NCBI GenBank assembly: GCA_020723305.1
Contig: DYJC01000003.1
Location: 270,418-334,417, forward strand
Direction: 5' to 3'
DNA length: 64,000 nt
DNA from: Desulfosudis oleivorans
Lineage (GTDB): Bacteria > Desulfobacterota > Desulfobacteria > Desulfobacterales > SURF-7
Positions 1 through 64,000 of this stretch are shown piece by piece (the first letter of the stretch is position 1; each line of letters starts with the position of its first letter). A model generated the notes under the pieces. The model was not told the origin of the DNA, ran no database searches, and worked only from the letters and a program-made list of their open reading frames with translations. A program made the position numbers and the translations under genes.

Positions 1-987
1 AAGAATGGCCGTATCGTTGATACCGGGCATGCAGATCCCATCCCGGATATCAGTCTGATCGATCATCCGGACTGGGAACTCTTTGATATGAACCTGTATC
101 TTGAAAAATCCTTTCAGGATGTTCCGGAGCCATATCCCATTCCAAAAGAGGAGATACGGGCATTTGTCGTCAATACAGCAAGAGGGTGTCCGTTCCGGTG
201 CACATTCTGCTATCATGTTTTTCAATATACACCATACCGCCGGCGTTCGGTAGACTCCATTCTGTCCGAAATCAAAACGCTTCAGGAAAGATACGGCATC
301 AACTATATCAACTTTTTTGATGAACTGACCTTTTCCCATAAAAACCAGGTTCGGGAATTTGTAGAAGGAGTAAAGAAAAGCAAACTCCGGTTTTTCTGGA
401 ATGCAGATATCCGATCCGATCTTTTTACGGAAAAGGATCTTCCTCTTCTTCATGAGGTAAAGCTCTCCGGCTGTATGAGTTTCGGGTATTCACTCGAATC
501 CGGAAGTCCGGCGATCTTGAAGACCATGAATAAAAAATTAAAGGTGGAAGATTTCAAACGGCAGAAGCTTGCACTGGATCAGGCAAAGATCACCTCTTTT
601 ACCAGCATTGTGCTGGGGTATCCTCAGGAAACCCTTGAAACCCTGAAACAGACCTTTGATGTATGCCATGACCTGGATATATTCCCCAGCACCGGATATC
701 TGCTGCCCCAGCCTGGAACACCCATGTTCGAGGTCGCCCGGCAGAAAGGGGTGGCCGATGATTTGGAAACCTATCTTCTGGGCATGGGGGATCGTCAGGA
801 CCTTCGTTTTAATCTGACGGATATTCCCGATGATCTGTTTCAGAATGAAGTAGCCGGACACCTGAAGCGGATCAATCAGAAAATCGGTCTGGGCCTGCAT
901 GATGATCAACTTGTCAAAACCTTTACTTTTGTGACATCCAAAGAAACATCCCGGCATGCGGATTCGCAAGCTGCTGCCGCATCCTGA
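1..987 (+). CDS. Radical SAM protein, B12-binding-domain (class B) type; 5' end lies outside the window
   Basis: Frame 1 is open from nt 1, with no stop before the listed ORF at 88. It carries the CxxxCxxC motif RGCPFRCTFCYH. It is the first gene of a co-directional sugar-modification operon. Confidence 0.75.
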   Translation, partial: KNGRIVDTGHADPIPDISLIDHPDWELFDMNLYLEKSFQDVPEPYPIPKEEIRAFVVNTARGCPFRCTFCYHVFQYTPYRRRSVDSILSEIKTLQERYGINYINFFDELTFSHKNQVREFVEGVKKSKLRFFWNADIRSDLFTEKDLPLLHEVKLSGCMSFGYSLESGSPAILKTMNKKLKVEDFKRQKLALDQAKITSFTSIVLGYPQETLETLKQTFDVCHDLDIFPSTGYLLPQPGTPMFEVARQKGVADDLETYLLGMGDRQDLRFNLTDIPDDLFQNEVAGHLKRINQKIGLGLHDDQLVKTFTFVTSKETSRHADSQAAAAS

Positions 988-34380: not shown

Positions 34381-34568
34381 GGACGGTCACTGAAAAAATA
34401 TTTTGAAAGATCCTCTCCACCCTGCGGGCCGATGGGCAGACGGTTTCCTCATGATGTGATTTCAGAATGGAGTCAAATCAACCAATAGCATGGATTGGAA
34501 TATTGCCGATCAGCAGGCAATCTTTCAGATTGACTTTTTTTTTAAATTTCTCTATTATTCAGCATATT

Positions 34569-39835: not shown

Positions 39836-39895
39836 TATCCGATGCATGCGGCTGCCGCCGGCTGTCCTATGCTGAATAAAAAAGGAGGCAATTGA

Positions 39896-42817: not shown

Positions 42818-42821
42818 TGGA

Positions 42822-44555: not shown

Positions 44556-44557
44556 AT

Positions 44558-45310: not shown

Positions 45311-45328
45311 AAAATAAGGAATTTTTAA

Positions 45329-46570
45329 TTGGATCAGCGTAAAACCAGATATCATGTTGTTGTTGTCATTGAAAAAGGTATTGCCGCCCCCAACATTATG
45401 CTGGATTTTGCATCAGCGTTTGAAGAGCTGGGTCATTCCGTTTTCCTGATTGATTTCCGTCTTCTGGAAACCATGGCATCCGATGAGGAAAAAATCACCT
45501 ATTTTGAAAATATCCGAAAAGAATTAAAGCAGTTCGAGCCGGATTTTGCCGTCGGATATGGCAACAGCGTGTTTATTTCACTGCCCCCTAATGATCCGGA
45601 ACGCCATTTTTTCGAGGAATTGAACCTGGATTATGTCTCTCTGTTTTTCGACAACCCGCTCCTGACCGGTTTTATCAGTTCCATGCTGACCTTGCATTCC
45701 CCCCGGTATACGGTTTTTATCTGGGATCGGAACCACCTTGCCGAATTCCGCAAGCAGCATAAAAAGGAAGCCTTTTATCTGCCACTGGCCACCAATCCAA
45801 AGATATTTCAGCCCCTTGCCTCGGAACCGGAATTTGAGGCAGATGTCGGTTTTATCGGGTCGGTCAGCACGACAGCGGATTATGATCTGGAGCGGACTCA
45901 GAATGGCTGGCACGAATGGCTCATCAGTTTTGCCCGGAATATTGTAGATGAGGTCCGCCGGCACCCGGGTGTTACCGTGACGGAAATCATTCATACCTTT
46001 CGGGATGGTTTCCCGGATGAAACCCGAAAGGCCCTGGACGATTTTTCCAGGCGGGATGATTACACCTCCTTTATCCTTTCCATATATGATGAAATCGGAG
46101 CCCGTGACCGCATGGATGCCATCCGCCTGTTGCCGGACGACCTGCGGGTGCACGTCTACGGAGGTCCCGGCTGGAACCGTCTGAGCAAACCCGGCTTGCA
46201 TCTGAAAGGCCCGGTCGATTATCATCGGACGGCGCCCCTGGTATATAATTCGGCCCGGATCAATCTGAATGTCACCGGCAGCCAGTTGTCCGCAGCCGTG
46301 AATCAGCGGGTGTTTGATGTGGCTGCATGCGGGGCTTTCCTGCTTACGGATTATCGAACCGCCCTGGATGAACTGTTTGATGTGGGCCGGGAAGTGGCCT
46401 GCTATCGCAACCTGAATGAATTAAACCAGTTGACGGATTATTACCGGAGCCATCCGGATCTGCGGCTGGAAATCGCAGCCCGGGGCAGGGAACGGGTGCT
46501 TGCCGAGCACACCTATTGCCACCGGGCCCAGCGCATCATCGACCTTTTTCAATACCGCGCATCCTATTGA
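45329..46570 (+). CDS. CgeB-family glycosyltransferase (DUF3880 plus GT1-like C-terminus)
   Basis: C-terminal block INLNVTGSQLSAAVNQRVFDVAACGAFLLTDY...RGRERVLAEHTYCHRAQRI is typical of CgeB-like enzymes. The TTG start follows AAGGAA. Confidence 0.65.
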   Translation: MDQRKTRYHVVVVIEKGIAAPNIMLDFASAFEELGHSVFLIDFRLLETMASDEEKITYFENIRKELKQFEPDFAVGYGNSVFISLPPNDPERHFFEELNLDYVSLFFDNPLLTGFISSMLTLHSPRYTVFIWDRNHLAEFRKQHKKEAFYLPLATNPKIFQPLASEPEFEADVGFIGSVSTTADYDLERTQNGWHEWLISFARNIVDEVRRHPGVTVTEIIHTFRDGFPDETRKALDDFSRRDDYTSFILSIYDEIGARDRMDAIRLLPDDLRVHVYGGPGWNRLSKPGLHLKGPVDYHRTAPLVYNSARINLNVTGSQLSAAVNQRVFDVAACGAFLLTDYRTALDELFDVGREVACYRNLNELNQLTDYYRSHPDLRLEIAARGRERVLAEHTYCHRAQRIIDLFQYRASY

Positions 46571-46821: not shown

Positions 46822-49800
46822 ATGGCATTACGAATCAATACCAACGTATCGGCGTTGAACGCCCACAAAAACATGCTTAAGAATGATGGCTTGCTGTCAT
46901 CTTCACTGGAGAAGCTGTCTTCCGGTCTGCGCATCAACAAGGCAGCCGATGATGCTTCGGGCATGGCCATCGCTGATTCCCTCAAATCCCAGGCAATGAG
47001 TCTGGGCCAGGCCATCCGGAACGCCAATGACGGAATAAACATTGTGCAGACCGCTGATGCCGCCCTGGAAGAATCCATTAACATTGTCAACACGATTAAA
47101 ACCAAGGCCATCCAGGCAGCCCAGGACGGTCAGACGACCGATTCCCGGAAAGCCATTCAGGCGGATATCACCAAACTGATGGAAGAATTGGATATCATTG
47201 CCAAGACGACGGCTTTTAACAACCAGAAACTGCTGTTCGGTAATTTTACCAACAAGAAGTTTCAGGTGGGCGCCTATTCCGGAGAGACGGTCAATATTTC
47301 CATCGCCTCTTCCCAGTCCACCAAAATCGGTCATGTCACCACCGGTAAGCTGGCGCTAACCGGCGACCAGGCCGGTTCCGTGGAGCTGGCCATTTACAGC
47401 AACCTGCAGAACAGAAGTTTCCTGGTCGAGTCCACCAACGTTCAGTACAACAACTCCCGGGAAAACAGCCTGGGTGCGTTGGCGGACGCCATCAACAAAC
47501 TGAGTGATGTTCTGGGTATTTCCGCATCGGCCAAGGTGGAAAGCAAGACCGTTCTCAATATTGCCGGCGGCACCACGGATACGGATTTTGCTATCAACGG
47601 CGTCAACATCGGACAGTTGAATGTTGTGGCCAATGACGCGGATGGCGCCCTGGTCAAGGCCATCAACCAGAAAACCTCCCAGCACGGTGTCGTTGCCAGC
47701 GTGGACAACGCCGGCTTTATGACCATGACATCCACCGACCAGAGAGCCCTGGAGGTCAGTTACAGCAGTGCGGTCGGCAGCGGTCTTGGTACCGATGCCA
47801 TTTTCAGGGGAACCAACATGAGTACCTTTGGTTATATAACCCTCAATCAGGAAGGTTCGGCTGAAATTCAGGTCCTTGATGTAGGCGACGGCGGGGTTGT
47901 GGCCATTTCCAGTGATCTGGAAACCTCCGGCACTACCACCACCACCATCGACTCCACCCTGGGCACCGGGTCCACACTAGCCCAGAACTCTATCCTGGGT
48001 GCCGGTTGGACAGCCGATCAGAACATCACCGGAGGGACTTTTTCTTCTGCCATCACCACCACCCAGACATCCACCCTGGTCAGCGGTTCAGCCCTTGGTC
48101 AGAATTCGGTTCTGGGTGCGGGTACGGTTATCGGCGCCAGTTCGACATTCGGCGGCAATGGCCGGGTTGAGGAAGTGGCCAACACCACCGGTTCCAGTAC
48201 CATCGTCACCAGTTCCATCCTCCAGGCCGGTACGGTGCTGAATATTTCCTCCAGTGAGCAAATTCAGTCGGATATGACCATTGCCGCTTCCAGTACGGCG
48301 ACTTCCGCGAGTACCCTTGTCAGCGGCTCGATTTTGGCCATTGGCACGGTCCTGGCCTCCGGGCAAGGGCTCACCAGCGGACTTTCCGGCGTGGCCCTGA
48401 CTATCGGCGCCACGGGCGTGGCTGCCGGCGCATCCGTACTTGGCTCCGGTGCTACATTGGCGTTGGGAACGGTACTGGCTTCCGGGCAATCTCTCACCAG
48501 CGGTCTTTCCGGCGTGGCGTTGACCATCGGCGCCACCGGCATAGCGGAAGGGCTATCTGTCTTAGGTTCCGGCGCAACACTGGCATTGGGTACGGTTCTG
48601 GCTTCCGGGCAAGGGCTCACCAGCGGTCTCTCCGGCGTGGCCTTGACCATCGCCGCAACAGGAGTGGCTGCGGGCGTTTCCGTTGTCGGTTCCGGCGCCA
48701 CCCTGGCTATCGGCACGGTTCTGGCTGCCGGCGCTACCCTGACCAGCGGTCTGGCTCAGACCGTCCAGATTGACACCACAACCACCAGCCTGTCCACTTC
48801 CGGTTCGACCGGCAGCGTACTGGCCGTGGGCACCAGGTTGATCGCAGGTCACACGACCCAGTATAATACAACCATTAGTGATACCGCCGCCACCACCAGC
48901 AGCAGCACTGTGGCCGCTAACAGTACTCTGGCCAACGGTACGGTGATCGGATCGGGCACGATATTCACGCAGGATATCAATACCACCAGCGGTGTTCTCA
49001 CCGCCGGTACGGCTGTTGTAGGAACAGCCACCCTATCCGGTGCCCAGACCCTGACGGCAGACAACACACTGCAAGGCGGCAGCCGCTTCATCAACGGTAC
49101 GGTTCTCGCCAGCGGTTCCTCCGTAGATACGGCCATCACCCTGACCTCGGCCATCACTACTACAGCGGCCTATGTTTTGGAAGCTGGGACCGTGATCGGT
49201 AGAGGTACTGATTTCACCGCCGGCTCCTCCATTGGCGGGGCAGCCACCCTCTTGACAGCGGAAACCCTTGCTGTTGCATCGGCCTACACCATGGCCTCCG
49301 GCCATAGCTTCGGCAGCGGGTCCATCATTGGTGTGGCCACCACAGAAGGCGGCTCCGGATATCTGGGCGTGGATGCTACCCTCATTGCCGCAGCCACCAT
49401 CAGCACCGCCGGTGCTGTAACCCTGGTGTCAGGCCATAGCTTCGGCAGCGGGTCCATCATTGGTACGGCCACCACAGCAGGCGGCTCCGGATATCTGGGT
49501 GTGGATGCTACCCTCATTGCCGCAGCCACCATCAGTACCGCCGGTGCTGTAACCTTGGTGACCGGCCACAGCTTCGGCAGCGGTTCCATCGTTGGTACAG
49601 CTACCACCGCCGGCGGTTCCGGGTACTTTGGTGTGGATGTTACCCTCATTGCCGCAGCCACGATTGGCGAAGACACGTTGGTGATCGGTCATGTCTTTGG
49701 CGCCGGCACTTTCCTGGAAAGCGGCACAACGGTCGGTACAGCCATCACCCTGCAGAACACCGCCACCCTTGGCGGCGATATGACCCTGAGTGCCGGGTCA

Positions 49801-50709
49801 ACGATTGCCGACGGCAGCGTGCTGCAGACCGGTTCCATCCTGTCCAATGACGCTACACTGTCATCCGGCATGACCCTGGTCAACGCCATGACCCTGAACA
49901 GTGACATGGATCTGGCATCCGGAAGTGTAATCCAGAACAATATTGGTACCTTGATTGCAGCAGGTTCGCTTGTCGGCGGTGATGCCACCCTGGCGTCCGA
50001 TCTGGAACTGGTAGGAGATCTGGACCTTGCAACCGGTTCCACCATCGGCAGCGGTTCGGTTCTGGTGAATGGATCGACTCTTGGCGGTGCTATCACCCTG
50101 GCCAACGCTGAAACCGTAAGCGGAGACGGCGGCATGAACCTGGCTGGGGGATCTTCCCTGGCCGCAGGCAGCGTGATCGCTAAAGGCACCTACCTGACCA
50201 ATAACATTGTTGCCTCAGATGGTAAGACATACACCACCGGTACGGTGCTGACCGACAATATCACCACATCGGGTGTTAACAGCATTACCGTGGAGATGAG
50301 TCTGCAGGAAGGTTCGGTTCTGGCGGCAGGCAGTGTTCTGGGTGCCAACCAGAGCTCCGGATCGGTCACGACCGATATAACCGACACTGAGTTGAATCGG
50401 CTCTCAAATGTGAGTGTACTCACTCAGGAATCGGCACAGAAAACCATTGCCATTGCAGATGCAGCGTTGAAAGATCTGGACAAGGTCAGGGCGGATCTTG
50501 GTTCTACTCAGAATCAATTGAATTCGACCATTGCCAATATCACAACCACAACCGTCAATGTAAAGGCTGCGGAATCCAGTATCCGTGAGGTGGATTTTGC
50601 AGATGAAGCATCAAACTTTACAAAGATGCAGGTTTTGATGCAGGCCAGCACATTCGCACTGGCCCAGGCCAATGCAACCTCTCAGCAGATACTGAGTCTT
50701 CTTCAATAA
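46822..50709 (+). CDS. Giant flagellin (1295 aa)
   Basis: Canonical N-terminus MALRINTNVSALNAHKNM...LSSGLRINKAADDASGMAIAD and C-terminus LGSTQNQLNSTIANITTTTVNVKAAESSIREVDFADEASNFTKMQVLMQASTFALAQANATSQQILSLLQ. An enormous Gly/Ser/Thr/Ala/Val/Leu-rich insert lies between them. fliD, fliS and flaG follow. Confidence 0.95.
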   Translation: MALRINTNVSALNAHKNMLKNDGLLSSSLEKLSSGLRINKAADDASGMAIADSLKSQAMSLGQAIRNANDGINIVQTADAALEESINIVNTIKTKAIQAAQDGQTTDSRKAIQADITKLMEELDIIAKTTAFNNQKLLFGNFTNKKFQVGAYSGETVNISIASSQSTKIGHVTTGKLALTGDQAGSVELAIYSNLQNRSFLVESTNVQYNNSRENSLGALADAINKLSDVLGISASAKVESKTVLNIAGGTTDTDFAINGVNIGQLNVVANDADGALVKAINQKTSQHGVVASVDNAGFMTMTSTDQRALEVSYSSAVGSGLGTDAIFRGTNMSTFGYITLNQEGSAEIQVLDVGDGGVVAISSDLETSGTTTTTIDSTLGTGSTLAQNSILGAGWTADQNITGGTFSSAITTTQTSTLVSGSALGQNSVLGAGTVIGASSTFGGNGRVEEVANTTGSSTIVTSSILQAGTVLNISSSEQIQSDMTIAASSTATSASTLVSGSILAIGTVLASGQGLTSGLSGVALTIGATGVAAGASVLGSGATLALGTVLASGQSLTSGLSGVALTIGATGIAEGLSVLGSGATLALGTVLASGQGLTSGLSGVALTIAATGVAAGVSVVGSGATLAIGTVLAAGATLTSGLAQTVQIDTTTTSLSTSGSTGSVLAVGTRLIAGHTTQYNTTISDTAATTSSSTVAANSTLANGTVIGSGTIFTQDINTTSGVLTAGTAVVGTATLSGAQTLTADNTLQGGSRFINGTVLASGSSVDTAITLTSAITTTAAYVLEAGTVIGRGTDFTAGSSIGGAATLLTAETLAVASAYTMASGHSFGSGSIIGVATTEGGSGYLGVDATLIAAATISTAGAVTLVSGHSFGSGSIIGTATTAGGSGYLGVDATLIAAATISTAGAVTLVTGHSFGSGSIVGTATTAGGSGYFGVDVTLIAAATIGEDTLVIGHVFGAGTFLESGTTVGTAITLQNTATLGGDMTLSAGSTIADGSVLQTGSILSNDATLSSGMTLVNAMTLNSDMDLASGSVIQNNIGTLIAAGSLVGGDATLASDLELVGDLDLATGSTIGSGSVLVNGSTLGGAITLANAETVSGDGGMNLAGGSSLAAGSVIAKGTYLTNNIVASDGKTYTTGTVLTDNITTSGVNSITVEMSLQEGSVLAAGSVLGANQSSGSVTTDITDTELNRLSNVSVLTQESAQKTIAIADAALKDLDKVRADLGSTQNQLNSTIANITTTTVNVKAAESSIREVDFADEASNFTKMQVLMQASTFALAQANATSQQILSLLQ
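48322..48756 (+). repeat. In-frame 123-bp (41-codon) tandem repeat, about 3.5 units, inside the flagellin gene
   Basis: The unit anchor GGN ACG GTN CTG GCY KCC GGS recurs at 48343, 48466, 48589 and 48712, an exact 123-nt spacing. The protein unit is GTVLASGQGLTSGLSGVALTIGATGVAAGASVLGSGATLAL. Confidence 0.9.
49294..49695 (+). repeat. In-frame 132-bp (44-codon) tandem repeat, about 3 units, inside the flagellin gene
   Basis: GGCCAYAGCTTCGGCAGCGG occurs at 49300, 49432 and 49564. Units 1 and 2 differ at 8 of 132 nt by manual alignment. The protein unit is SGHSFGSGSIIGTATTAGGSGYLGVDATLIAAATISTAGAVTLV. Confidence 0.9.
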
Positions 50710-54033: not shown

Positions 54034-56364
54034 TCACAACGCTTTGTTTTTTGCATCCAGCACATTCCGGATCATCGCCGCAAGTTCATTGATACCAAAG
54101 GGTTTCATCAACAGCCCCTTGGCTCCGATCTTTTTTGAAACCGCTTCTGTAATCGTATCTTTATAACCCGTACTGATAATGACAGGTAGTCCGGGTTTTA
54201 TTTTAAAGATTTCCCGGATCAGGTCTTCTCCGGTCAGTTGCGGCATGGTCATATCGGTGATCACCAGATCAAAAAGATCCGGTTCAGCCTTTAATTTGTC
54301 CAGAGCCCTGAGTGGATTGGTTTCCGCTTGCACACGATACCCCAGTCTCTCAAGCTGTTTTTGTGTAATCTGCGCGATTAATTCTTCATCATCCACAAAC
54401 AGGATTGTGCTGTTCCCTTCGGGTATTTCACAGGATATTTTTTTCTCTTCCTCACATTCAACATTCACCATCGGGAACAGGATACGAAAACTGGTTCCCT
54501 CATTGATCCGGCTTGTCACCTTGATATCCCCGCCATAATTTTTGACAATGCCGTGTACCACGGAAAGTCCCATTCCGCAACCTTTACCAACCTCTTTGGT
54601 AGTAAAATAGGGGTCGAAAATTTTCTCGATCACACCTTCATCAATTCCTTCTCCATTATCGCGAACCTCAAGTTGGACATAATTCCCGGCAGAAAGACAA
54701 TGATTGCTGTTCAAATCAGGCTTATCAATAAAGGTATTGGACAGTTCGATATCCAGCATCCCTTTTCTGTTTTCCATGGCATGAACAGCGTTTGTAAATA
54801 GATTCAGAATGATCTGGTGTATCTGTGTGGGATTGGCCATGACGATGCCAATTGGATCATGAACCGTTTTCCGGATCGTGATATTGGGTGGGGCAGAGGC
54901 TCGCAAAAGTTTTAGGGAATCCTCAATAACCATATCGAGCTTTATGGGTTTCAACTGGTCTTCGGCTTTCCAGCTGAAAATTAAAAGTTGCTGTATCACA
55001 TCTTTGGCCCGGAGGGTTGCATTTCGAATCTCCGCCAGATTTTTCCGGGCCGGATTCCATTCCGGCACGTCATCCATGGCGATTTCCGTATTACCGAGGA
55101 TGATACTCAGGATATTGTTAAAATTGTGCGCGATTCCGCCGGAAAGTGTACCCATGGATTCCATTTTCTGGGAATACCGCAGTTGTTTTTCAAGTGCTTC
55201 CTTTTCCTGTGCAGCGATTTTTCTTTCCGAGATGTCGCGGACAAAGCCCCGAAAACCTGCCGGTTGGTTATCCGAATCATATAGAAGGGTCACGGATGTT
55301 TCAATCCATCTACTTGTACCATCCGGCCGGGAAATCTTCCAGTCAATTCCTTTATTCGGTTTCCCGGTTCTGAATACCTCATTAAAAGTTTTGTAGACCT
55401 TATAGGCTGTTTCATCATCCATATATTTACGGTTATTCATTCCTATGAGTTCTTCTTTTCGATTGCCGGCAATTTTGCTCATGGAATCGTTACAGAAAAC
55501 CATATTACCGGCCAGATCCACTTCAAAATATCCATCCTCGAAAATATTCAGGATGGTCCGGTATCGCTCCTCACTGATTTTCAGGGTGTTTTCGGCAATG
55601 GTTTTTTTCTTTTCATTTTGTCTGGCATGCCAGATTGTGTATAAGGAAAGAAGAATGATGAAAAAAAGTATGACGGAAAAGAGATATTGAAGATTTAGGC
55701 TGAGCTGATGGATTCTTGTCTGTACATCTTCCAGGTAAATTCCGGTTCCAATGATCCATCCCCAGGGTTTAAATTCTCTTACATAGGAAAGCTTGGGAAC
55801 AATCCGGTCAGGATCATCCTTCCATTGCCACATATATTGGACATAACCCTGCCCGTCTGCTTTTACGATTTTTACAAATTCGACAAAAAGATGTTTTCCC
55901 TCCGGATCGCTATAATTGGTCAGATCTGAACCGTTTAACTCAGGCCGATAAGGATGCACCACCATAGAGGGATGCATATCAATGATCCAGAAATAATCCT
56001 TTCTTTCCGGTCCGTACCGCAGATCACGGATGTATTCTCTGGCCAGTTGCTGCGCCTGAGACCGGCTCATCTCCTTGGTTTGAACTTTTTTTTCGAAATT
56101 GTTCAGGATCTCCCAGGTCAGGGATGTCAATTCCTTGATGGTTTCACGTTTTGTAGACATCAGATTGGATTCAAATGAGGGCAGGGTCAGGAAAAAAACA
56201 GCGCCGATAAACAGAATAACTGTAATACCTACGGGTAATGCGACATTGGTCACCGTAGGTGCGGCAATGAATTGCAACATGCGTTTCAGTATGGTGTATG
56301 TCTGCCTGTTCTCAGCTATCATAATAGGAGCAATCCTGAATTCGTCTTTCCAGCCCGTCAACAT
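54034..56364 (-). CDS. Hybrid sensor kinase (Cache-type periplasmic sensor-PAS-HisKA-HATPase-REC)
   Basis: Cache-like block DYFWIIDMHPSMVVHPYRPELNGSDL...GYVQYMWQWKDD between two TM helices, then PAS/PAC. The H-box is GGIAHNFNNILSIILGNTEI, followed by GCGMGLSVVHGIVKNYGG and the receiver ILFVDDEELIA...DLVITDMTMPQLTG. No clear RBS was seen, so the start is uncertain (56280-56364). Confidence 0.85.
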   Translation of the reverse strand: MLTGWKDEFRIAPIMIAENRQTYTILKRMLQFIAAPTVTNVALPVGITVILFIGAVFFLTLPSFESNLMSTKRETIKELTSLTWEILNNFEKKVQTKEMSRSQAQQLAREYIRDLRYGPERKDYFWIIDMHPSMVVHPYRPELNGSDLTNYSDPEGKHLFVEFVKIVKADGQGYVQYMWQWKDDPDRIVPKLSYVREFKPWGWIIGTGIYLEDVQTRIHQLSLNLQYLFSVILFFIILLSLYTIWHARQNEKKKTIAENTLKISEERYRTILNIFEDGYFEVDLAGNMVFCNDSMSKIAGNRKEELIGMNNRKYMDDETAYKVYKTFNEVFRTGKPNKGIDWKISRPDGTSRWIETSVTLLYDSDNQPAGFRGFVRDISERKIAAQEKEALEKQLRYSQKMESMGTLSGGIAHNFNNILSIILGNTEIAMDDVPEWNPARKNLAEIRNATLRAKDVIQQLLIFSWKAEDQLKPIKLDMVIEDSLKLLRASAPPNITIRKTVHDPIGIVMANPTQIHQIILNLFTNAVHAMENRKGMLDIELSNTFIDKPDLNSNHCLSAGNYVQLEVRDNGEGIDEGVIEKIFDPYFTTKEVGKGCGMGLSVVHGIVKNYGGDIKVTSRINEGTSFRILFPMVNVECEEEKKISCEIPEGNSTILFVDDEELIAQITQKQLERLGYRVQAETNPLRALDKLKAEPDLFDLVITDMTMPQLTGEDLIREIFKIKPGLPVIISTGYKDTITEAVSKKIGAKGLLMKPFGINELAAMIRNVLDAKNKAL

Positions 56365-56726
56365 TTATGCTTTTTTAAACAATCTCAATTGGTTTTGCAA
56401 GCACAATTCTATCTTTTTTTCCGCGATATCAAAATCCGGGAAAACCTGGATTACAGGGGAGTATGATCCCATGGACTTTTGAAATCGGCTCAATTGATGA
56501 AATAAGGGAACAGTGACGATATTTCGCATGCAGCCGTGAAATATAGAAAGTTCAATGAAGCATAATATAGTGGAAGGAGGAACGAAAACATAAAAATATG
56601 TAATTAATATGGAATGTTGCCATGCTATTTCGGTAGTGGCATACAAATTGAAACTGCGAACAGTCATGAATAAAATGGTTTTGGAGAGTCGAAAATATAC
56701 GGCAACAATCATCAAGGAGAGGTTTT

Positions 56727-57368
56727 ATGTTTGCACTATTTCATAGCGGCGGAATGTTTATGTATGTCATTCTGGTGGTTTCAATTGTGGCGTTTGCCTT
56801 GTTCTGTGAAAGGGTGAGCTTCCTTTATTTCCGTCTGAAACTGAACATGGACAGTCCGTTTCAAAAAATTTTGAGAAGACTTCATGAAACCAATTTCCGG
56901 GGAGCAATGGAGGAGTGTGCAAGGATTGAAAAACATCCTTTGGGAAGGATTTTAAAGGCGGGTCTTTTGAAGTCGGACAAGCGGGATAAGGATATTGAAC
57001 GGGCTTTGGAAGAAAAAATACTGGAAGAGATACCCTTTGTAAAAGCCCGCATCAATCTGCTTACCATGTTTGCAAACATCTCAACACTTCTTGGCCTGCT
57101 GGGAACGATTGCCGGTCTGATCAGCGCTTTTGAAGGTTTAAGTACGGCAACAGGAGCCATGAAGCAGGAGGTACTTGCAAGTGGTATATCGGTTGCAATG
57201 TTGACCACGGCTTTTGGATTGATTGTGGCGATTCCTTGTCTGGTCGGTTTCTATTTCCTCAACAACCGGGGGGAATTTATCATTGAGCAACTGGAGACAA
57301 AAGCACTCAGCCTGTTCAACGTCCTTTCATCCATCAAGAGGGAAAAGGAGCTGCAATGTCAATCCTGA
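56727..57368 (+). CDS. MotA/TolQ/ExbB-family proton channel (AglR-like)
   Basis: Three TM segments with the family C-terminal block GLLGTIAGLISAF...GISVAMLTTAFGLIVAIPCLVGFYFL. Confidence 0.9.
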   Translation: MFALFHSGGMFMYVILVVSIVAFALFCERVSFLYFRLKLNMDSPFQKILRRLHETNFRGAMEECARIEKHPLGRILKAGLLKSDKRDKDIERALEEKILEEIPFVKARINLLTMFANISTLLGLLGTIAGLISAFEGLSTATGAMKQEVLASGISVAMLTTAFGLIVAIPCLVGFYFLNNRGEFIIEQLETKALSLFNVLSSIKREKELQCQS

Positions 57369-57868
57369 GAAAACAGCGCAAAGCCAATAGGGAAGAGGAT
57401 GATCCGGATATGGTTCCGGTCATGAATCTGTTTCTCGTATTGATTCCATTCCTGCTGATGTCTGCAAGCTTTTACCATCTGAAGGCGATCAACACTTCCG
57501 TACCGGTTCTTTCCCAGCAGAGTGAAGATATGGAAGAGGAAGCGAAAAAGGAAATCAAATTGACTGTCATTGTGGAAATCAAGGAAAAGCAGATCGACGT
57601 ATCTGCCCTTTCAGGGGAGGTTGGAGTAGAACTGCTGAAGGGTCTGGAGAGAACGATTGATCGAAAGGGCAGTGATGAACAGACCATGAAAGCATTATCG
57701 GATTGTCTGGAGAAGATCAAGTCCGGTTTTCCTGCCAGTGATACGGTGATTATTATACCGGAGGAAGATGTCGTGTATGAGACAATCATTCAGACAATGG
57801 ATGTAGCAAGGTATTATAATGAAAGCCCCCTGTTTCCGAAAGTAGTTCTTTCCGGGAAAGTAGGTTGA
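57356..57868 (+). CDS. ExbD/TolR-family protein 1
   Basis: Single TM helix with a conserved Asp just before it (DPDMVPVMNLFLVLIPFLLM) and a periplasmic domain. It overlaps the upstream gene by 13 nt. Confidence 0.8.
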   Translation: MSILRKQRKANREEDDPDMVPVMNLFLVLIPFLLMSASFYHLKAINTSVPVLSQQSEDMEEEAKKEIKLTVIVEIKEKQIDVSALSGEVGVELLKGLERTIDRKGSDEQTMKALSDCLEKIKSGFPASDTVIIIPEEDVVYETIIQTMDVARYYNESPLFPKVVLSGKVG

Positions 57869-57900
57869 TCGGGTATATTGATAATCTGAGGAAATCATCA

Positions 57901-58389
57901 ATGGCACTTGGCAGACGAAATAAACGAAACCGGCAGTTTGTTCCACCCAAATTGCAATTAACTTCCATGATGGACATGTTTACCATTATTCTGATTTTCC
58001 TGCTTGTATCATTTTCGGATAAACCGGAAACCATGAACCTGGAGAAAAATCTGGAATTGCCGGTGTCCGATGCAAAACTGGATTACAATGACAATATCAA
58101 ACTGGTTCTGTCCCGGGACAGCCTGTATCTGGGGGATGAGCGGATTGCCGGGATTCAGGATGGAAAGATCGAAGGGCTGAATCCAACCAGGCTGGAAGAT
58201 TCAGTGCTGTATAAGGAGTTGATGGCATACCATAAAGAGGAAATAGATGGTGATCCAAAAGCGGATAAAGAGGTTTCGATTCTTTTTTTATGCGACAAAC
58301 GGCTCTCTTTTAAAACAGTCAACAGCATCATTAAAACTGCCGGAATGGCAGGATACCCCAATTTTCAGTTCGGGGTATTAAAAAAATAA
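57901..58389 (+). CDS. ExbD/TolR-family protein 2
   Basis: LTSMMDMFTIILIFLLVSF (TM Asp) and the C-terminal periplasmic block VSILFLCDKRLSFKTVNSIIKTAGMAGY. The ATG at 57901 follows GAGGA. Confidence 0.85.
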   Translation: MALGRRNKRNRQFVPPKLQLTSMMDMFTIILIFLLVSFSDKPETMNLEKNLELPVSDAKLDYNDNIKLVLSRDSLYLGDERIAGIQDGKIEGLNPTRLEDSVLYKELMAYHKEEIDGDPKADKEVSILFLCDKRLSFKTVNSIIKTAGMAGYPNFQFGVLKK

Positions 58390-58410
58390 GAAGGAATAGG
58401 AACTGTACCC

Positions 58411-58752
58411 ATGAAAAAAGGCATCAAAAAATCAATTCAGACTGTGCTTATTGCTCTATTACTGGTGGTGGGTTCCGGTTTTGGAAGTTCCCTTGCTGGA
58501 ACCTCCAGCGAAACAGGAACTTCCGGCAAACAGGATCCGGAAAAAACAGCTCTGACGAATCGAATCGATTTCGGGAACTCATATATCATGGGGCAGTCCA
58601 TCAAGTCAGGGGCTGTGTACCTGTTGCAGCGAAAAAAAACAGACATCAGCAGCATGCTGAAGTGCCGGTCCGATTACCGTGATGAAATTCTGGAAGATTT
58701 TCAATTTGAAGAAGTGGAAAAGGATCGGAAAACAGGTTCGAAAAAACCGTAA
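58411..58752 (+). CDS. Small secreted protein of unknown function (position equivalent to GltF-like)
   Basis: Signal-peptide-like MKKGIKKSIQTVLIALLLVVGSGFGSSLAG. 113 aa. No recognisable domain. Confidence 0.5.
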   Translation: MKKGIKKSIQTVLIALLLVVGSGFGSSLAGTSSETGTSGKQDPEKTALTNRIDFGNSYIMGQSIKSGAVYLLQRKKTDISSMLKCRSDYRDEILEDFQFEEVEKDRKTGSKKP

Positions 58753-58786
58753 CTTTATACCATAAGAACGATCCGGGGAAGGAAAA

Positions 58787-60982
58787 ATGAACTACCAGAA
58801 TACACATCTTGAGAAAAAAAGATTTGAAACCATTCCAACCGATAAAAAAGAGTCCGGCGCAGGATGCTTGATTTCTCAGTTTTTCATTTTCAAAAAAGAT
58901 GTTCATGTCGGATGGGACTGCTTTTACAAAGAGAAAATCATCATCGGCAGCAGTGAAAAGGCGGATCTTGTCCTGAAGGGAAATGATATTTCAGCTATCC
59001 ACGCGATTGTTTATCTGAAAAACAATCAGATTGTGGTGATGTCCCAGAACAAGGAGGGGAAGGTTCTGGTCAACAATCAATCAGCAGAGATGGCGATTCT
59101 TGGAAAATTCGATTATCTGGATATCGGGCCCTATACAATTAAAATCAAGCTTCTGGAGAGTGGCAATCCGGTTTCAGATAAACAGAATATACTGAAAAAA
59201 AGAAAGAATGTTGTATTACCGAAAAGACCTGAAGGGATATCAATTAAAGATGATTCAAAAAAAGAAAGAACAAGTCGATCCATGGCTGATCAACAACATT
59301 CGGCAAAATCCGACCCATTGGAAACTGAAATATTTGACTCGATCCAGAGAGACAGCAAGAATACGATTCAAATTCCGGAAAACAAACCGGATATCGGACG
59401 GGAAAAAATAGAAAACCCTCGTCTTCATGCTCCGGATACGGATGAAGACGAAGATGAAGATGATGACCGTGAAGCGCTGTTTGGGCTTAAAGAGATGATC
59501 CTGAATGATGGCCGGAATATGAAAGCCTCTGCGGACAGCCGGGAAATCAATGTGGAGGTGACAAAATTCAAGAACAACACAATGGTGGATATCTTTTTTT
59601 TAAAGCCGAAGAATCAATACCATATCCGATCCAAAGACCGGAAATTTCTCTTGGCTGAACATTCAGAAAAAAATACCTGTTTTTTTTACTTCAGCGATCA
59701 TGTCTGGGGCACCATCCTGAAAAACGGCTCTGATGCGGTAAAGACCGACCATTTGAAGAAAACAGCAAATCTACAGAATGAAAATAAAGGAATTTATCAA
59801 TATCCCATTCAAATTGGGGATACCGTTACAGTTACCGATGGCATCTTTGATTATATCATACGATCAATTTTTGTAGAAGAGAGTCCGGCGATCAACTTGC
59901 CGGAACAAGAGGAAAAAGTATTTCATAAGTACATGATAAAATCCTCAATCTTTCATATGTTTCTTCTTGTATTCCTCGGCTTTTTCAATTCCGTGAAGCA
60001 ACCTGAACCCTTGCCCCCTGAAACACATTTCGTAAAAATCGATACATCCGAGCTTTCAAAAATCATAACCATGAAAAGACCGGTAGAGAAGCCGGTAGTT
60101 AAACCAAAGATCATGGAACCCATGGTTGAAAAAAAGCAGATTGTCATGGAAAGCAAGAAAAAAGCACCTGAAGTAGTGGAAAACAAGAAAATGATATCCA
60201 AAGCAATGGAAAACAGAAAACAGATGTCCCAACCAGGCAAGGGAAACAGTAAAAAAAGCGGCAACCAGGTAGTTTCCCGATCACCGCAGGCAGGCGGTGG
60301 TTTTGGACAGGGAAATATTTCGAATCGAAATATCAATCAGCAGGGGTTGCTAAGCATGCTTGGGAACAGTGTGGGTATCCAACCTCAGGCCGCGATGGCA
60401 GCGGTCACAAATCTGGATGCGGTTTCTACTGTTCATTCCGGTAATGCAAACTTCAAGGTTGGCGGAATTGCCGGAAACCTTGGGAATGCCAAGATTGAAA
60501 TTCCAAAGATTTCCAATACCGGGATTGTCGGTACCAAGGGTTCTTCTCAGGTTTTGCGAAGTTATGGAGCAGAAGGAGCGGGAACGGTTGCAGCACTTGA
60601 AAAAGGAAGGATCGGACAAAAACAGGTTCAGGGAATGGTATCTGCGCAGTTGAGTGCTCAATTGCGTATGGCTGTCGGGGTAAGTGGCGGTATGAGCCGC
60701 GAGGCAGTGAAAAAGGTAATTGATCAGCATCTGGACGAGATCAGTTACTGCTATGAAACAGCGCTGATTTCAAATCCATCCATCATGGGAAAAGTGATTT
60801 TCGAGTGGAAAATTCTGACATCCGGAAAGGTCGGGATGGTTCAGATCAAATCTTCTACCATTAATTCAAATGAAATCCACTCCTGCATAAAAGCTGCGAT
60901 TCAAACCTGGCAGTTTCCACAGCCAAAAGGCAGTGAAGTGATTGTATCGTATCCATTTGTTTTTGATATTGTCGGGTTCTGA
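58787..60982 (+). CDS. Bitopic protein: cytoplasmic FHA domain, TM helix, Pro/Lys/Glu-rich TonB-like spacer, AgmX/PglI-type (TonB-C-like) C-terminal domain
   Basis: FHA-like block IIIGSSEKADLVLKGNDISAIHAIVYLKNNQIVVMSQNKEGKVLVNN. TM helix IFHMFLLVFLGFF. Spacer KRPVEKPVVKPKIMEPMVEKK. C-terminus MSREAVKKVIDQHLDEISYCYE...IHSCIKAAIQTWQFPQPKG...VSYPFVF. Confidence 0.75.
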   Translation: MNYQNTHLEKKRFETIPTDKKESGAGCLISQFFIFKKDVHVGWDCFYKEKIIIGSSEKADLVLKGNDISAIHAIVYLKNNQIVVMSQNKEGKVLVNNQSAEMAILGKFDYLDIGPYTIKIKLLESGNPVSDKQNILKKRKNVVLPKRPEGISIKDDSKKERTSRSMADQQHSAKSDPLETEIFDSIQRDSKNTIQIPENKPDIGREKIENPRLHAPDTDEDEDEDDDREALFGLKEMILNDGRNMKASADSREINVEVTKFKNNTMVDIFFLKPKNQYHIRSKDRKFLLAEHSEKNTCFFYFSDHVWGTILKNGSDAVKTDHLKKTANLQNENKGIYQYPIQIGDTVTVTDGIFDYIIRSIFVEESPAINLPEQEEKVFHKYMIKSSIFHMFLLVFLGFFNSVKQPEPLPPETHFVKIDTSELSKIITMKRPVEKPVVKPKIMEPMVEKKQIVMESKKKAPEVVENKKMISKAMENRKQMSQPGKGNSKKSGNQVVSRSPQAGGGFGQGNISNRNINQQGLLSMLGNSVGIQPQAAMAAVTNLDAVSTVHSGNANFKVGGIAGNLGNAKIEIPKISNTGIVGTKGSSQVLRSYGAEGAGTVAALEKGRIGQKQVQGMVSAQLSAQLRMAVGVSGGMSREAVKKVIDQHLDEISYCYETALISNPSIMGKVIFEWKILTSGKVGMVQIKSSTINSNEIHSCIKAAIQTWQFPQPKGSEVIVSYPFVFDIVGF

Positions 60983-61017
60983 CCCGTAATCATAATCCTG
61001 TTTAGGAGAGAGAAAAC

Positions 61018-61740
61018 ATGAAGAAAAGAGTAACGATTTTTGCCCTGATCCTGATGGCGGTTTTTAACCCGATCTGGGGAATCTGTGAAGACAATGACCC
61101 CAAAGATCCGGTTTCAGCCATTCAAAAACGAATTTTTCATAAGAGTCATGAATTGGGCCTGCCATTCGGCTATATCCCGGATGATGATTTTTATGAAGTC
61201 CTTCCTGTCGGTGTCAGCTATACCTATAACTTTAATGAAAACTGGGCATGGGAAGTGGCAAGAGGGCTGTATTTTGTCAATCAGGAAAAGGATCTCAAGG
61301 GTAAACTTGAAATTGAATTCGGTGTCACGCCTTCTGAATTCAGTGAACCAAAGTATATGATCCATTCCAGCATCATGATGAAGCCATTTTATGGAAAAGA
61401 ATCCATATGGAATAAAGGGATTGTCAACAAGGAAAGCTATTTCCTGATTGGAGGTGGGGTTGTCAATTACGAGAGGCAATTCAGTTACGGTGAACCTTCA
61501 ACCGAAAATGCCCTGTCCATCAATCTTGGATATGGAAGCCGGTATTTTATTACAGAGACCCTGTGTCTGAACATTGAAATACGGGACATGATTACATTCA
61601 AAGAAGAAGAAACGGTAAACAACATATTTATCGGATGTACGGTTGGCTTCCGGTTTAATCTTTCTCCCCGGGAAACAGAGAAGGATCAGACAGTGGATAT
61701 GATGAAAACCTACTTAAAGAAAAATGATGAAAATGAATAA
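61018..61740 (+). CDS. Outer-membrane beta-barrel protein (small, about 8-10 strands)
   Basis: Signal peptide MKKRVTIFALILMAVFNPIWG. Alternating amphipathic strands. An aromatic-rich terminal strand (IFIGCTVGFRFNL) precedes a short hydrophilic tail. Confidence 0.6.
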   Translation: MKKRVTIFALILMAVFNPIWGICEDNDPKDPVSAIQKRIFHKSHELGLPFGYIPDDDFYEVLPVGVSYTYNFNENWAWEVARGLYFVNQEKDLKGKLEIEFGVTPSEFSEPKYMIHSSIMMKPFYGKESIWNKGIVNKESYFLIGGGVVNYERQFSYGEPSTENALSINLGYGSRYFITETLCLNIEIRDMITFKEEETVNNIFIGCTVGFRFNLSPRETEKDQTVDMMKTYLKKNDENE

Positions 61741-63244
61741 AAAACTATTTTTTTTGATTCTAATCCTTTTTGTATTGTTTTTCAGGAGCAATGCGTTTTC
61801 TGTTGGGAATGAAAACAATTCAGAGAAGAGTGGTGTGTCCGACAGCAGTATGGATACTTCGGAAAATACGAATCGTGAAATGGCTCGGAAAGCCTTTCAG
61901 GAGGGATATGATCTGTTTGAAGATAAGGATTACAAGGATGCATGCCCCTTGTTTTATCAGTATTTGAGCAACAGTACTCCGGATGATGCGGATTATGAAT
62001 GGGCTGAGTTTTTTTTCGGGATCTGCCTCAAAAAATCAGGATTCTCTCATGCTGCAGTGGATACGCTTTCCGAACTGGTTATCCGGAAACCGAATCCGAA
62101 AATTGTTTCATACTGCTTAGAGTTTTTTGAAAATACAATCCGGACTTCCCCTTTTGATCACGATCTGGTTATCAACAAGGTGATCTGTGACCAGGAGTAT
62201 GGCTTTGTAGGAGAAGAGCTTGCTGATTTCATCCATTATCATCAGGGGGTTTATGATTGGAAGCATGGCTTTGTGTCATGGGGCGATGACCATTTTAAAA
62301 AAATCAAGCCCGGTACCTACTATTTTCATCAGTTCCAATACCATCAGGCAATGATGCGGATTCACACCGGCAGGATTGACGAGGCGATTGTCCTCTTGAA
62401 AAAGATCATGGAAAGCCCTCTTCAGGATAATCAGTTAAAAAATGAAGTCCGAAAAACCATTGCCCGTCTTCTGTATGAAAAAGGTGAATATAAAGAAGCT
62501 GACAGGCTGTATGGTGAAATCACAAAAAATATCCTTGAGCAATCCCAGAATCTGCTGGAAAGAGCATGGGCTCATTACCGGATCGGTAATCCTGAAAAGG
62601 CCATGGGCTTCTTATATGCGTTTGAGGCACCGAGCTTTCAGAATTACTTCACACCGGAATACTATATTTTGAAATCATTTATTTTCAAGGATGTTTGTCA
62701 TTATCAAAGTGCCCTGCAGGTGGTTACGGATTTTAAGGATCGATACGGTGTGGCGCTTGAAGATATTTACCAGAGAGGAAAACCGGAAGATAACTATCCA
62801 TTGATGCTGGTTCTGATGAATAAAAAGAGAGTCAATGAAACCTGGAAATTTTTAGAACTTCTGGAATCGGAAAAAAAGGAGATCGAATCGATTCAGGACA
62901 AACCCTTGGGAGATTATCTGGAAAAAATGTATGTCCTGCAAATTGAGGAAAGCACAAACGAACTTCGCCTGACCATCCAGGAAGAGTATGAAGTAATGGC
63001 CAATCAACTCCTGCGGTATGAAGAGGAATCCCATCTGATGGAATATGAGATTGGAATGGATATGTATCAGCGGATTTCTGAAAGCCATTATCAGGATGAA
63101 AAGTCCGGTGAAAAGCAATCTGAAGATGGCATGGTTGTTTATCCTTTCCAGGGCGAATTCTGGAATGATGAACTGGCGGACTACCATGTAAAATTGCCGA
63201 ATAAATGCAACAACAATGAAGAATGGGATATTTTTTTCAAATGA
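61724..63244 (+). CDS. Secreted TPR-like helical-repeat protein
   Basis: Signal peptide MMKMNKKLFFLILILFVLFFRSNAFS. All-helical repeats with TPR-like A/Y/F spacing. It overlaps both neighbouring genes. Confidence 0.6.
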   Translation: MMKMNKKLFFLILILFVLFFRSNAFSVGNENNSEKSGVSDSSMDTSENTNREMARKAFQEGYDLFEDKDYKDACPLFYQYLSNSTPDDADYEWAEFFFGICLKKSGFSHAAVDTLSELVIRKPNPKIVSYCLEFFENTIRTSPFDHDLVINKVICDQEYGFVGEELADFIHYHQGVYDWKHGFVSWGDDHFKKIKPGTYYFHQFQYHQAMMRIHTGRIDEAIVLLKKIMESPLQDNQLKNEVRKTIARLLYEKGEYKEADRLYGEITKNILEQSQNLLERAWAHYRIGNPEKAMGFLYAFEAPSFQNYFTPEYYILKSFIFKDVCHYQSALQVVTDFKDRYGVALEDIYQRGKPEDNYPLMLVLMNKKRVNETWKFLELLESEKKEIESIQDKPLGDYLEKMYVLQIEESTNELRLTIQEEYEVMANQLLRYEEESHLMEYEIGMDMYQRISESHYQDEKSGEKQSEDGMVVYPFQGEFWNDELADYHVKLPNKCNNNEEWDIFFK

Positions 63245-64000
63245 AGCAATTCAATTACAAAAAATCAAATGTCATGCTGTTTGCAGCTTCTGTGCTGTTC
63301 CTGATCTGTTATTGGGGAACCGCCTCTGGAGAGGAAAACCTTGATTTTCAGAAACAGAGTAAGGAAGAGGAGCATCAAAAGTATGTTGAAAAGCTGTCGC
63401 AGGATATGGGAAAAGTTGAAAAAGCGATTGCGACTACCAGGGTTCTGATCGACCAATCGAGCAACCGGCCCTATCTGCCGGAATTGTATCTGCGGCTGGC
63501 GGAATTATATATCGAAAAGTCCAGAATCGTCTATTTTATCCGTAAAGACAGAACCAAGGTGTCTGAATCCTCCCTCGAGAATCTGGAATCCAACTCTCTT
63601 AAAAACCAGGCCATTGAAATCTATCAGAGGATTCTAAACAACTTTCCGGATTTTCCGGATCGGGATAAGGTTCATTTTTTCATGGCCCATGAATACAGGG
63701 AACTGGGACTGTTTGACAACATGATCGTTCAATACCGGGAGATAATCAAGAAATATAAAGATAGCGGATATGTTCCGGAAGCATATCTTCTTTTGGGCGA
63801 TTATTTCATTAATAAAGAAGATCTGGATCTGGCCAAACGTCACTACCACTCGGTATTGAACTATCCGGACAGTCCGGCAGTCGGAATTGCACGGTATAAA
63901 CTTGCCTGGTGTCATATCAACAAGGCGGAATATCCGGAAGCGATCAAGCTTTTTGAAGAAGCCGTCGCTCATACCGGGTCCGGGAAAAATCCGGATGTGG
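63241..64000 (+). CDS. Secreted TPR-repeat protein, 3' end outside the window (not in the ORF track because no stop is reached)
   Basis: The ATG at 63241 overlaps the upstream TGA (ATGA). Frame 1 stays open to nt 64000. Signal peptide MKQFNYKKSNVMLFAASVLFLICYWGTASG. TPR units include PEAYLLLGDYFINKEDLDLAKRHYHSVL and ARYKLAWCHINKAEYPEAIKLFEEA. Confidence 0.7.
   Translation, partial: MKQFNYKKSNVMLFAASVLFLICYWGTASGEENLDFQKQSKEEEHQKYVEKLSQDMGKVEKAIATTRVLIDQSSNRPYLPELYLRLAELYIEKSRIVYFIRKDRTKVSESSLENLESNSLKNQAIEIYQRILNNFPDFPDRDKVHFFMAHEYRELGLFDNMIVQYREIIKKYKDSGYVPEAYLLLGDYFINKEDLDLAKRHYHSVLNYPDSPAVGIARYKLAWCHINKAEYPEAIKLFEEAVAHTGSGKNPDV

Follow-up and report, generated by a model that had tools for sequence, protein, structure and literature searches.

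The 64,000 nucleotide (nt) stretch of Desulfosudis oleivorans DNA analysed here (contig DYJC01000003.1, positions 270,418 to 334,417; hereafter the window) carries at its 3' end, from position 56727 to 64000, the beginning of an operon of the Agl-Glt/Nfs family, known from Myxococcus xanthus. The complete unit comprises 12 genes in ~16 kb with gaps of at most 35 nt, of which the window holds ~7.3 kb, i.e. a little under half. With somewhat better than even confidence, we explain these 12 genes as a self-contained envelope-spanning machine, in which a stator and a GltG-like transducer act on an outer-membrane adhesin module, with adhesion or cohesion as probable and surface movement as possible output. 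This explanation starts from gene content, domain identities, topology signals, collinearity and conservation, all of which were observed directly.

The eight co-directional genes of the preliminary description were recovered as open reading frames (ORFs) on the + strand at 56727-64000, tightly packed and partly overlapping, with spacings between genes 01 to 08 of -13, -4, +21, +34, +35, -17 and -4 nt. Profile searches with NCBIfam and Pfam models, read against their curated bit-score cutoffs, and signal peptide calls reproduced the domains described for them; signal peptides are predicted on the small protein (gene 04), the barrel (gene 06) and both TPR proteins (genes 07 and 08). The restriction to eight genes did not survive, as the unit runs to 12 on its source contig. 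The sequence 3' of the window was read from the 28-kb public contig Logan SRR13164373_4315 (loci L001 and L075), which encodes exactly the same proteins; positions called window-equivalent continue past the window end. This extension, which the preliminary description had proposed, yielded the remainder of the GltD-like TPR gene (complete at L001 13736-17173) and genes 09 to 12, co-directional, overlapping or at most 14 nt apart, at window-equivalent 66650-72711. A short minus-strand ORF and then a carboxyltransferase gene follow 3' of gene 12, and the operon is therefore taken to end there. The genes are (lengths in amino acids, aa; TM, transmembrane):

Gene 01, 56727..57368, + strand: TolQ/ExbB/MotA-type proton channel, AglR-like; 213 aa, 3 TM segments
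Gene 02, 57356..57868, + strand: ExbD/TolR paralog 1; 170 aa, Pfam ExbD
Gene 03, 57865..58389, + strand: ExbD/TolR paralog 2; 174 aa with TTG 57865 as start codon, 162 aa with ATG 57901
Gene 04, 58411..58752, + strand: small secreted protein, putative distant CglF/GltF-family member; 113 aa
Gene 05, 58787..60982, + strand: GltG-like transducer; 731 aa, FHA and AgmX/PglI domains
Gene 06, 61018..61740, + strand: small outer-membrane beta-barrel of the GltA/B/H (OMP_myx_plus) family; 240 aa
Gene 07, 61724..63244, + strand: periplasmic TPR protein, GltC-like; 506 aa
Gene 08, 63241..64000 (N-terminal 253 aa), + strand: long TPR protein, GltD-like; 1145 aa in full, ending at window-equivalent 66678
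Gene 09, outside the window, co-directional: lipoprotein, lipobox LTGC; 457 aa
Gene 10, outside the window, co-directional: secreted TSP3 Ca-binding repeat protein; 264 aa
Gene 11, outside the window, co-directional: lipoprotein with a VWA domain and bacterial TSP3 repeats; 533 aa, lipobox
Gene 12, outside the window, co-directional: PPC-repeat lipoprotein; 757 aa, lipobox, ~5 PPC-like repeats

In 185,579 species genomes a pattern scan recovered 73 loci, whose gene order was tested by phmmer synteny analysis; frequencies of gene presence refer throughout to loci long enough to be tested. Desulfobacterota-type sources are Desulfobacterales, Desulfatiglandales, Desulfomonilia, Desulfobulbia and Syntrophobacteria, and the remaining loci stem from Nitrospirota (Thermodesulfovibrionia), Bacteriovoracaceae, Myxococcota and a few metagenome-assembled genomes (MAGs) of doubtful assignment. 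The complete order 01-12 occurs in 27 loci. Most others are shorter stretches with part of this order, the main exceptions being two clades and a few individual loci. Each of genes 01 to 08 is present, in the same order, in 94-98% of the loci, a very strong co-occurrence of the kind on which the preliminary description had made its reading depend, and genes 09 to 12 are present in 87-100%; the arrangement is far from chance. A second clade (Thermodesulfobacteriota, Syntrophobacteria and unclassified MAGs; L061, L062, L064 and L065) has the 12 genes circularly permuted, in the order 10-11-12-01..09. All 12 are kept, the pattern expected of one functional unit. The third clade, Myxococcota, possesses gene 10 followed by 01-05, two barrels and 07-08. 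The source organism belongs to the Desulfobacteraceae, near Desulfocicer; for the gene 05 protein, identities reach 91% in an uncultured Desulfocicer sp., 82% in a Desulfobacterium sp. MAG and 77% in D. vacuolatum, and an exhaustive search retrieved 204 representative clusters (50% identity) of GltG-like proteins at E≤1e-30.

Genes 01 to 03 encode a motor of the AglR/Q/S type, i.e. a channel and two TolR/ExbD-like paralogs in adjacent, overlapping genes (gene 02 overlaps gene 01 by 13 nt). The channel protein scores 98 bits with Pfam MotA_ExbB. Its top NCBIfam match is TolQ (TIGR02796) with 72 bits, so far under the cutoff of 221 that it is not considered a true TolQ, and the ExbB and ExbD equivalog models likewise score the motor genes far under their cutoffs. 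Gene 01 is present in 60 of 61 loci, with TM2 and TM3 strongly conserved. The Pfam ExbD model scores 44 bits with gene 02 and 37 bits with gene 03, for which the public gene call begins at ATG 57901. The TM motif of gene 02, VPVMNLFLVL, has Asn at the position of the essential Asp of TolR, ExbD and AglQ, kept in ~90% of 62 sequences; the canonical Asp is conserved in the corresponding motif of gene 03, SMMDMFTIIL. Since paralog 1 has Asn and paralog 2 keeps Asp, the stator plug would have to be a heterodimer, in which just one residue can be protonated. In M. xanthus, the substitution D28N in AglQ abolishes function.

Gene 05 combines the features of a GltG-type protein: FHA domain, single TM helix, long linker and AgmX/PglI domain. 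Against the GltG model its residues 34-727 align to profile positions 9-646 of 650 (E 8e-34), with a score of 117 bits (cutoff 650). The C-terminal domain scores 112 bits with AgmX/PglI NF033768 (cutoff 40) and 16.4 bits with TonB_C TIGR01352 (cutoff 27.1), which bears out the preliminary description, where a score as ordinary TonB for the domain encoded at 58787-60982 had been named as a refutation. An AlphaFold2 (AF2) model has a mean predicted local distance difference test (pLDDT) score of 52, with folded domains at 65-86, and begins with FHA (28-124), followed by an acidic linker without order and a second beta domain (254-362). The latter abuts the TM helix (379-402), after which come a long linker and, at the C-terminus, an alpha/beta domain (631-727). 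This predicted layout is the same as the five-part layout published for M. xanthus GltG (PMC11761067). Foldseek searches of the model against PDB returned FHA folds only, and nothing for the C-terminal domain. Periplasmic residues ~497-612 (window 60275-60620) are rich in Gly, Asn and Ala and rank with the best conserved segments in the family. AF2 predicts residues 497-612 to be disordered (pLDDT <50) despite this conservation, and they probably represent an extended partner-binding segment. A long GltG segment is predicted to lie in a crevice of GltD (PMC11761067), and by analogy the conserved linker of gene 05 may do the same. In the FHA domain (window 58787-59160), Gly-Ser replaces the Gly-Arg of canonical FHA domains that bind phosphothreonine, and the domain may be a scaffold-binding module rather than a phosphothreonine reader.

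The small protein of gene 04 scores 27 bits with NCBIfam CglF (cutoff 90), and 26 of its 28 positional homologs match the same model, weakly. It has a core of ~45 residues, common also to the Myxococcota versions, with the conserved motif RIDFGNxYIxGQSIKSGAVYLLxRKKSEIKSML; these matches suggest a weak membership in the CglF/GltF family. The barrel of gene 06, present in 68 of 70 loci, scores 92.6 bits with OMP_myx_plus TIGR04565 (cutoff 60) and thus groups with the GltA/B/H-family barrels. The 506-aa TPR protein of gene 07, for which the preliminary description had suggested a GltE-like nature, resembles GltC instead: the NCBIfam GltC model yields 101.6 bits (E 5e-29), under its equivalog cutoff of 450 bits, and homology to GltC is likely. 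The GltE model NF033758 matches none of the 12 operon products; it scores 164 bits with a downstream TPR protein of the Myxococcales locus L070. Gene 08, with signal peptide and TPR, has no direct profile match to a GltD model and scores 540 bits against a 1110-aa protein of L070. The TPR proteins have sub-threshold matches to YbgF/CpoB (77 bits, cutoff 90) and BamD.

Lipoboxes occur on genes 09, 11 and 12. A permissive Pfam scan and a PDB sequence search found no relative of gene 09 and only a weak PPC match for gene 12. Gene 10 scores 146 bits with Pfam TSP_3 and contains 7 DxDxDG repeats. Its top NCBIfam match is MtsC (201 bits, cutoff 350; profile positions 13-264 of 428), although it has no hydrophobic tail at its terminus and no MYXO-CTERM anchor as in MtsC. 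MtsC is MXAN_1334 of M. xanthus, the NCBIfam "cell-cell cohesion MYXO-CTERM protein" (PMC12475490), and has been reported to take part in cell-cell cohesion, S motility and development (PMC11980579). Gene 11 matches MtsD with 117 bits (cutoff 800) and CglD with 47 bits (cutoff 400). In its VWA domain the residues DxSxS...T...D of the MIDAS, an adhesion site that depends on a metal ion, are intact and at least 90% conserved in 42 homologs, which argues for ligand binding.

For protein contacts, use of the proton-motive force and physiological output we infer from Tol/TonB and Agl-Glt precedents and from published M. xanthus models. The TolQ-like pentameric channel would hold a heterodimeric TolR-like plug with one Asp and one Asn, and proton flow would induce a conformational change that is handed on to the GltG-like protein at its TM helix. 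The long, conserved periplasmic segment of this protein and its TonB-C-terminal-domain-like domain would dock onto a TPR scaffold, in which the 1145-aa GltD-like and the 506-aa GltC-like protein are joined by the small GltF/CglF-like one as a bridge. This scaffold would contact an outer-membrane module of the GltA/B/H-type barrel, the three lipoproteins and the secreted TSP3 Ca-binding protein. The output would be a motor-controlled exposure, positioning or tensioning of Ca2+/MIDAS-dependent surface adhesins, and the physiological result adhesion or cell-cell cohesion, possibly slow surface translocation.

One ExbB-like and two ExbD-like genes, together with a membrane protein that has a Pro/Lys-rich linker and folds like a TonB C-terminal domain, could also point to ordinary ExbB-ExbD-TonB transduction for TonB-dependent uptake. 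This possibility is effectively refuted by the preference of the gene 05 domain for AgmX/PglI over TIGR01352, by the low ExbB/ExbD equivalog scores, and by cytoplasmic FHA domains and obligatory TPR and adhesin partners, which are foreign to TonB systems. Moreover, no Plug or TonB_dep_Rec domain was found in any of the 12 products, and the only barrel is the 240-aa OMP_myx_plus protein. Profile scores and receptor absence together rule out a TonB uptake system. As the TonB test is negative and co-occurrence strong, the Agl-Glt-like reading of the preliminary description stands, and the profile matches support it.

Within the Agl-Glt/Nfs family, two other functions have to be weighed. An Nfs-like or Tol-Pal-like role in envelope maintenance or assembly, by deposition of polymer or matrix or by tethering of the outer membrane, would make the TSP3, VWA and PPC proteins structural. 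We consider this an unlikely alternative: the family includes Nfs, which assembles spore coat polysaccharide via AglRQS (PMC3858216), the stator is most similar to TolQ/TolR, the TPR proteins resemble YbgF/CpoB and BamD below threshold, and Ca-binding TSP3 proteins are similar to matrix proteins (COMP-like; CglD preprint). However, neither the operon nor its conserved flanks contain Wza, Wzy or glycosyltransferase genes, TolA, TolB and Pal are missing, TolQ and YbgF scores remain under cutoffs, and the conserved MIDAS motif speaks for ligand binding. A true gliding engine of the kind found in Myxococcus and proposed for Bdellovibrio, whose motor traffics along the cell and pushes against surface-bound adhesins, appears distinctly improbable. 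Some Desulfobacterota (Desulfonema, cable bacteria) do glide, the operon itself encodes adhesin-like VWA and TSP3 proteins, and relatives of the operon occur in Bacteriovoracaceae MAGs. The gene types that Luciano et al. 2011 (PMC3169522) tied to potential gliders are present, too (AglRQS-like, GltC/D/F/G-like, GltA/B-type barrel). Yet no GltE, GltI, GltJ, GltK, AglZ or MglA-type gene lies in or beside the operon, there is one barrel where M. xanthus has GltA, GltB and GltH, and the host encodes flagella. Furthermore, the closest myxobacterial counterpart, the uncharacterised Glt-like cluster G5 of M. xanthus (MXAN_1327-1331; Luciano et al. 2011, PMC3169522, Table S3), is dispensable for gliding, as a polar insertion in MXAN_1327 leaves A and S motility wild-type.

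The favoured explanation, a motor coupled to adhesins, has points against it as well. The FHA domain of gene 05, as read from its sequence, is devoid of the canonical phosphothreonine-binding Arg, and genes 09 and 12 belong to no informative family. Similarity to Mts proteins is under the curated cutoffs (gene 10: 201 of 350 bits, without MYXO-CTERM; gene 11: 117 of 800 bits), and as TSP3 repeats are of low complexity, part of it may come from the repeats alone. The MXAN_1327 mutant is motile, in contrast to mts mutants, which are reported to be S-motility defective, and G5 and Mts may accordingly not be one unit in M. xanthus. Finally, experimental data are confined to the Myxococcota members.

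The genomic surroundings of the operon are less conserved. The preliminary description placed the cluster directly downstream of a Cache-PAS hybrid kinase and the flagellar filament operon. The kinase gene is real and adjacent (54034-56364), but lies on the minus strand, divergent from the motor cluster and not co-directional with it. Flagellar genes occur beside L003 and L005 only, and a close kinase homolog beside L002, L003 and L005 only, all of them nearest relatives, so that flagellar adjacency is a lineage-specific trait rather than a feature of the cluster, and a functional link to the filament locus or the kinase was rejected. With a GC content of 0.42 the cluster is indeed more AT-rich than the flagellin locus, as had been noted; most of the window has 0.45-0.50, however, and the real outlier is the flagellin ORF (0.56-0.62). 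Horizontal transfer is not supported by the low GC content, as the cluster lies ~4-6 points under baseline, like the neighbouring fliS, flaG and kinase genes.

Promoter-like sites in a promoter consensus scan occurred at chance level, and none of the terminator-like matches coincided with an operon boundary. The intergenic region 56365-56726 contains GGCATACAAATTGAA at window 56638-56652, ~75 nt 5' of the first motor gene. The element is kept in L002 and L003 and, in the form GGCACAGGAATTGAA, in the more distant L005, and it resembles a sigma-54 -24/-12 promoter, but with TTGA rather than TTGC as -12 element. A relaxed sigma-54 pattern occurs at chance frequency across the window, with no enrichment.

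Further upstream, the window encodes a giant flagellin of 1295 aa (46822-50709) with normal Flagellin_N and Flagellin_C ends and an insert of ~1050 aa, rich in Gly, Ala, Thr and Ser, with several near-identical internal repeats. Immediately upstream of it lies a probable flagellin-glycosylation island (38173-46570), with genes for a CmcI-type methyltransferase, a radical SAM protein, a 973-aa MptE/Maf-like protein with TPR, a TPR and GT9 protein, another methyltransferase and a glycosyltransferase. At 34467-37958 a 1163-aa protein is encoded that combines a methylation motif of prepilin type at its N-terminus with two Laminin_G_3 (ConA-like lectin) domains; it may be a large adhesin associated with pili.

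The system of the window is not categorically new, since it falls into the Glt/Nfs family and two of its domains are already named by NCBI models. To judge from the searchable literature, three elements are new: a self-contained architecture of 12 genes in which adhesin-type genes are operonic, its breadth in Desulfobacterota and Nitrospirota, and the link it suggests of the orphan G5 cluster with the mts locus for cohesion. Our literature search found no paper linking AgmX or GltG with Desulfobacterota, and the operon recurs in many anaerobic bacteria, in which it appears to be undescribed. The locus bears on what the ancestral Glt core does outside myxobacteria, a question since 2011, and on the function of the M. 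xanthus clusters G4 and G5. The presence of motor, transducer, barrel and adhesin-type proteins (MIDAS-VWA, TSP3, PPC) in one operon leads to the hypothesis that the ancestral output was motor-coupled adhesion or cohesion, which, if correct, bears on aggregate and biofilm formation by sulfate reducers. As a tentative and rather unlikely extension, the operon might represent an ancestral, self-sufficient Glt module of motor, transducer and adhesin, widespread in anaerobic Desulfobacterota and Nitrospirota, that powers focal-adhesion-like, motor-controlled attachment or slow gliding. In that case focal-adhesion machinery would not be special to Myxococcota and Bdellovibrionota, and the orphan cluster G5 would form one machine together with the mts cohesion locus, each being half of it.

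Among known systems, Tol-Pal and ExbBD-TonB share with the window operon the general principle of a 5:2-type proton channel that energises a single-pass inner-membrane protein, whose long linker and small C-terminal domain extend to the outer membrane. The operon differs from both in its two distinct ExbD/TolR paralogs, one of them without Asp, in the cytoplasmic FHA and in the AgmX/PglI domain; in addition, the operon contains no TolA, TolB or Pal, and its TolQ (72 of 221 bits) and YbgF (77 of 90 bits) scores do not reach those of a Tol-Pal system. The Agl-Nfs system of M. xanthus is of the same family (NfsA-H are Glt paralogs; PMC3858216) and likewise possesses a motor-driven outer-membrane and periplasmic module of the same protein families. 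Nfs, however, relies on the AglRQS motor from elsewhere and acts together with the Exo pathway for polysaccharide, whereas the window motor is part of the operon and no polysaccharide genes are linked to it.

The M. xanthus Agl-Glt gliding machinery has in common with the operon a stator of TolQR type in which the two TolR-like subunits differ, the architecture of GltG, GltC- and GltD-like TPR proteins, a GltA/B/H barrel, a small GltF/CglF-like protein and comparable VWA/TSP3 surface partners, CglB and CglD, which are adhesins of the gliding machine (incl. CglD preprint). Its equivalog cutoffs are not reached (GltG 117 of 650, GltC 101 of 450, CglF 27 of 90, CglD 47 of 400 bits), and the operon is devoid of GltE, a separate third barrel GltH, GltI, GltJ, GltK, AglZ and CglB; GltI, GltJ, GltK, AglZ, MglA-type and CglB genes were found neither in the operon nor within 10 kb in related loci. 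While Agl-Glt is split over the G1, G2 and M1 loci, the window system is united in one operon, and its TSP3 and VWA genes are operonic with glt-like genes, unlike cglD (VWA and TSP3), which is stated never to be clustered with glt genes (CglD preprint).

A further related system is the core complex of aglRQS with gltC, D, E and G described from Gammaproteobacteria, Geobacter and Fibrobacter (PMC3169522), in which motor genes and GltG, GltC and GltD homologs form a single locus in non-gliding flagellated bacteria, as here. The correspondence to a conserved core noted in the preliminary description, which had counted GltF- and GltH-like parts in it, applies to the aglRQS- and GltG-like genes and probably to the GltC- and GltD-like ones; the operon is without GltE and has in addition a GltF/CglF-like gene, a GltA/B/H-type barrel and four more conserved downstream genes. 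GltF and the GltA/B/H barrels were reported from Myxococcales and Bdellovibrionales only, and the tables of Luciano et al. 2011 include no Desulfo-, Syntropho- or Nitrospira-type genome (PMC3169522); the window operon type occurs in Desulfobacterota and Nitrospirota.

The closest likeness is to G5 and Mts. Order and sizes of the GltF-, GltG-, barrel, GltC- and GltD-like genes 04 to 08 are the same as those of MXAN_1331 to MXAN_1327, and the Myxococcota loci L070-L073 possess the same series in order. The counterparts, with homologies as listed in PMC3169522, Table S3, are:

MXAN_1331, 162 aa, GltF homolog: gene 04, 113 aa, same position
MXAN_1330, 749 aa, FHA/GltG homolog: gene 05, 731 aa
MXAN_1329, 246 aa, GltB homolog: gene 06, 240 aa, same position
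MXAN_1328, 538 aa, GltC homolog: gene 07, 506 aa
MXAN_1327, 1089 aa, GltD homolog: gene 08, 1145 aa

In M. xanthus, mtsC (MXAN_1334) is three locus tags away from G5. The Myxococcota loci L070 and L072 contain full-scoring MtsC (581 and 584 bits, cutoff 350), directly followed by TolQ, ExbD, ExbD, small protein, GltG-like, barrel, barrel, GltC-like and GltD-like genes. Cytochrome b (ExtP-like) and c-type cytochrome genes precede the mtsC-motor-Glt series in L070 (1678-4072), L071 (3099-5487) and L072 (2909-5606). Homology searches seeded with the Myxococcales MAG proteins had only uncultured Myxococcota among the matches listed. The window operon likewise has a TSP3 protein with MtsC as its top NCBIfam match, but its gene is placed downstream, the protein is shorter (264 aa) and the MYXO-CTERM anchor is missing, and three extra lipoprotein genes (09, 11 and 12) are present. 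Compared with the Myxococcota MAGs, it has one barrel instead of two, and no GltE-like TPR gene follows; unlike the operon, G5 of strain DK1622 has no agl-like motor genes listed at its locus (PMC3169522). On the basis of synteny, protein sizes, profile matches and published tables rather than a tree, the window operon is best described as a Desulfobacterota form of the G5/Mts-type Glt-like system.

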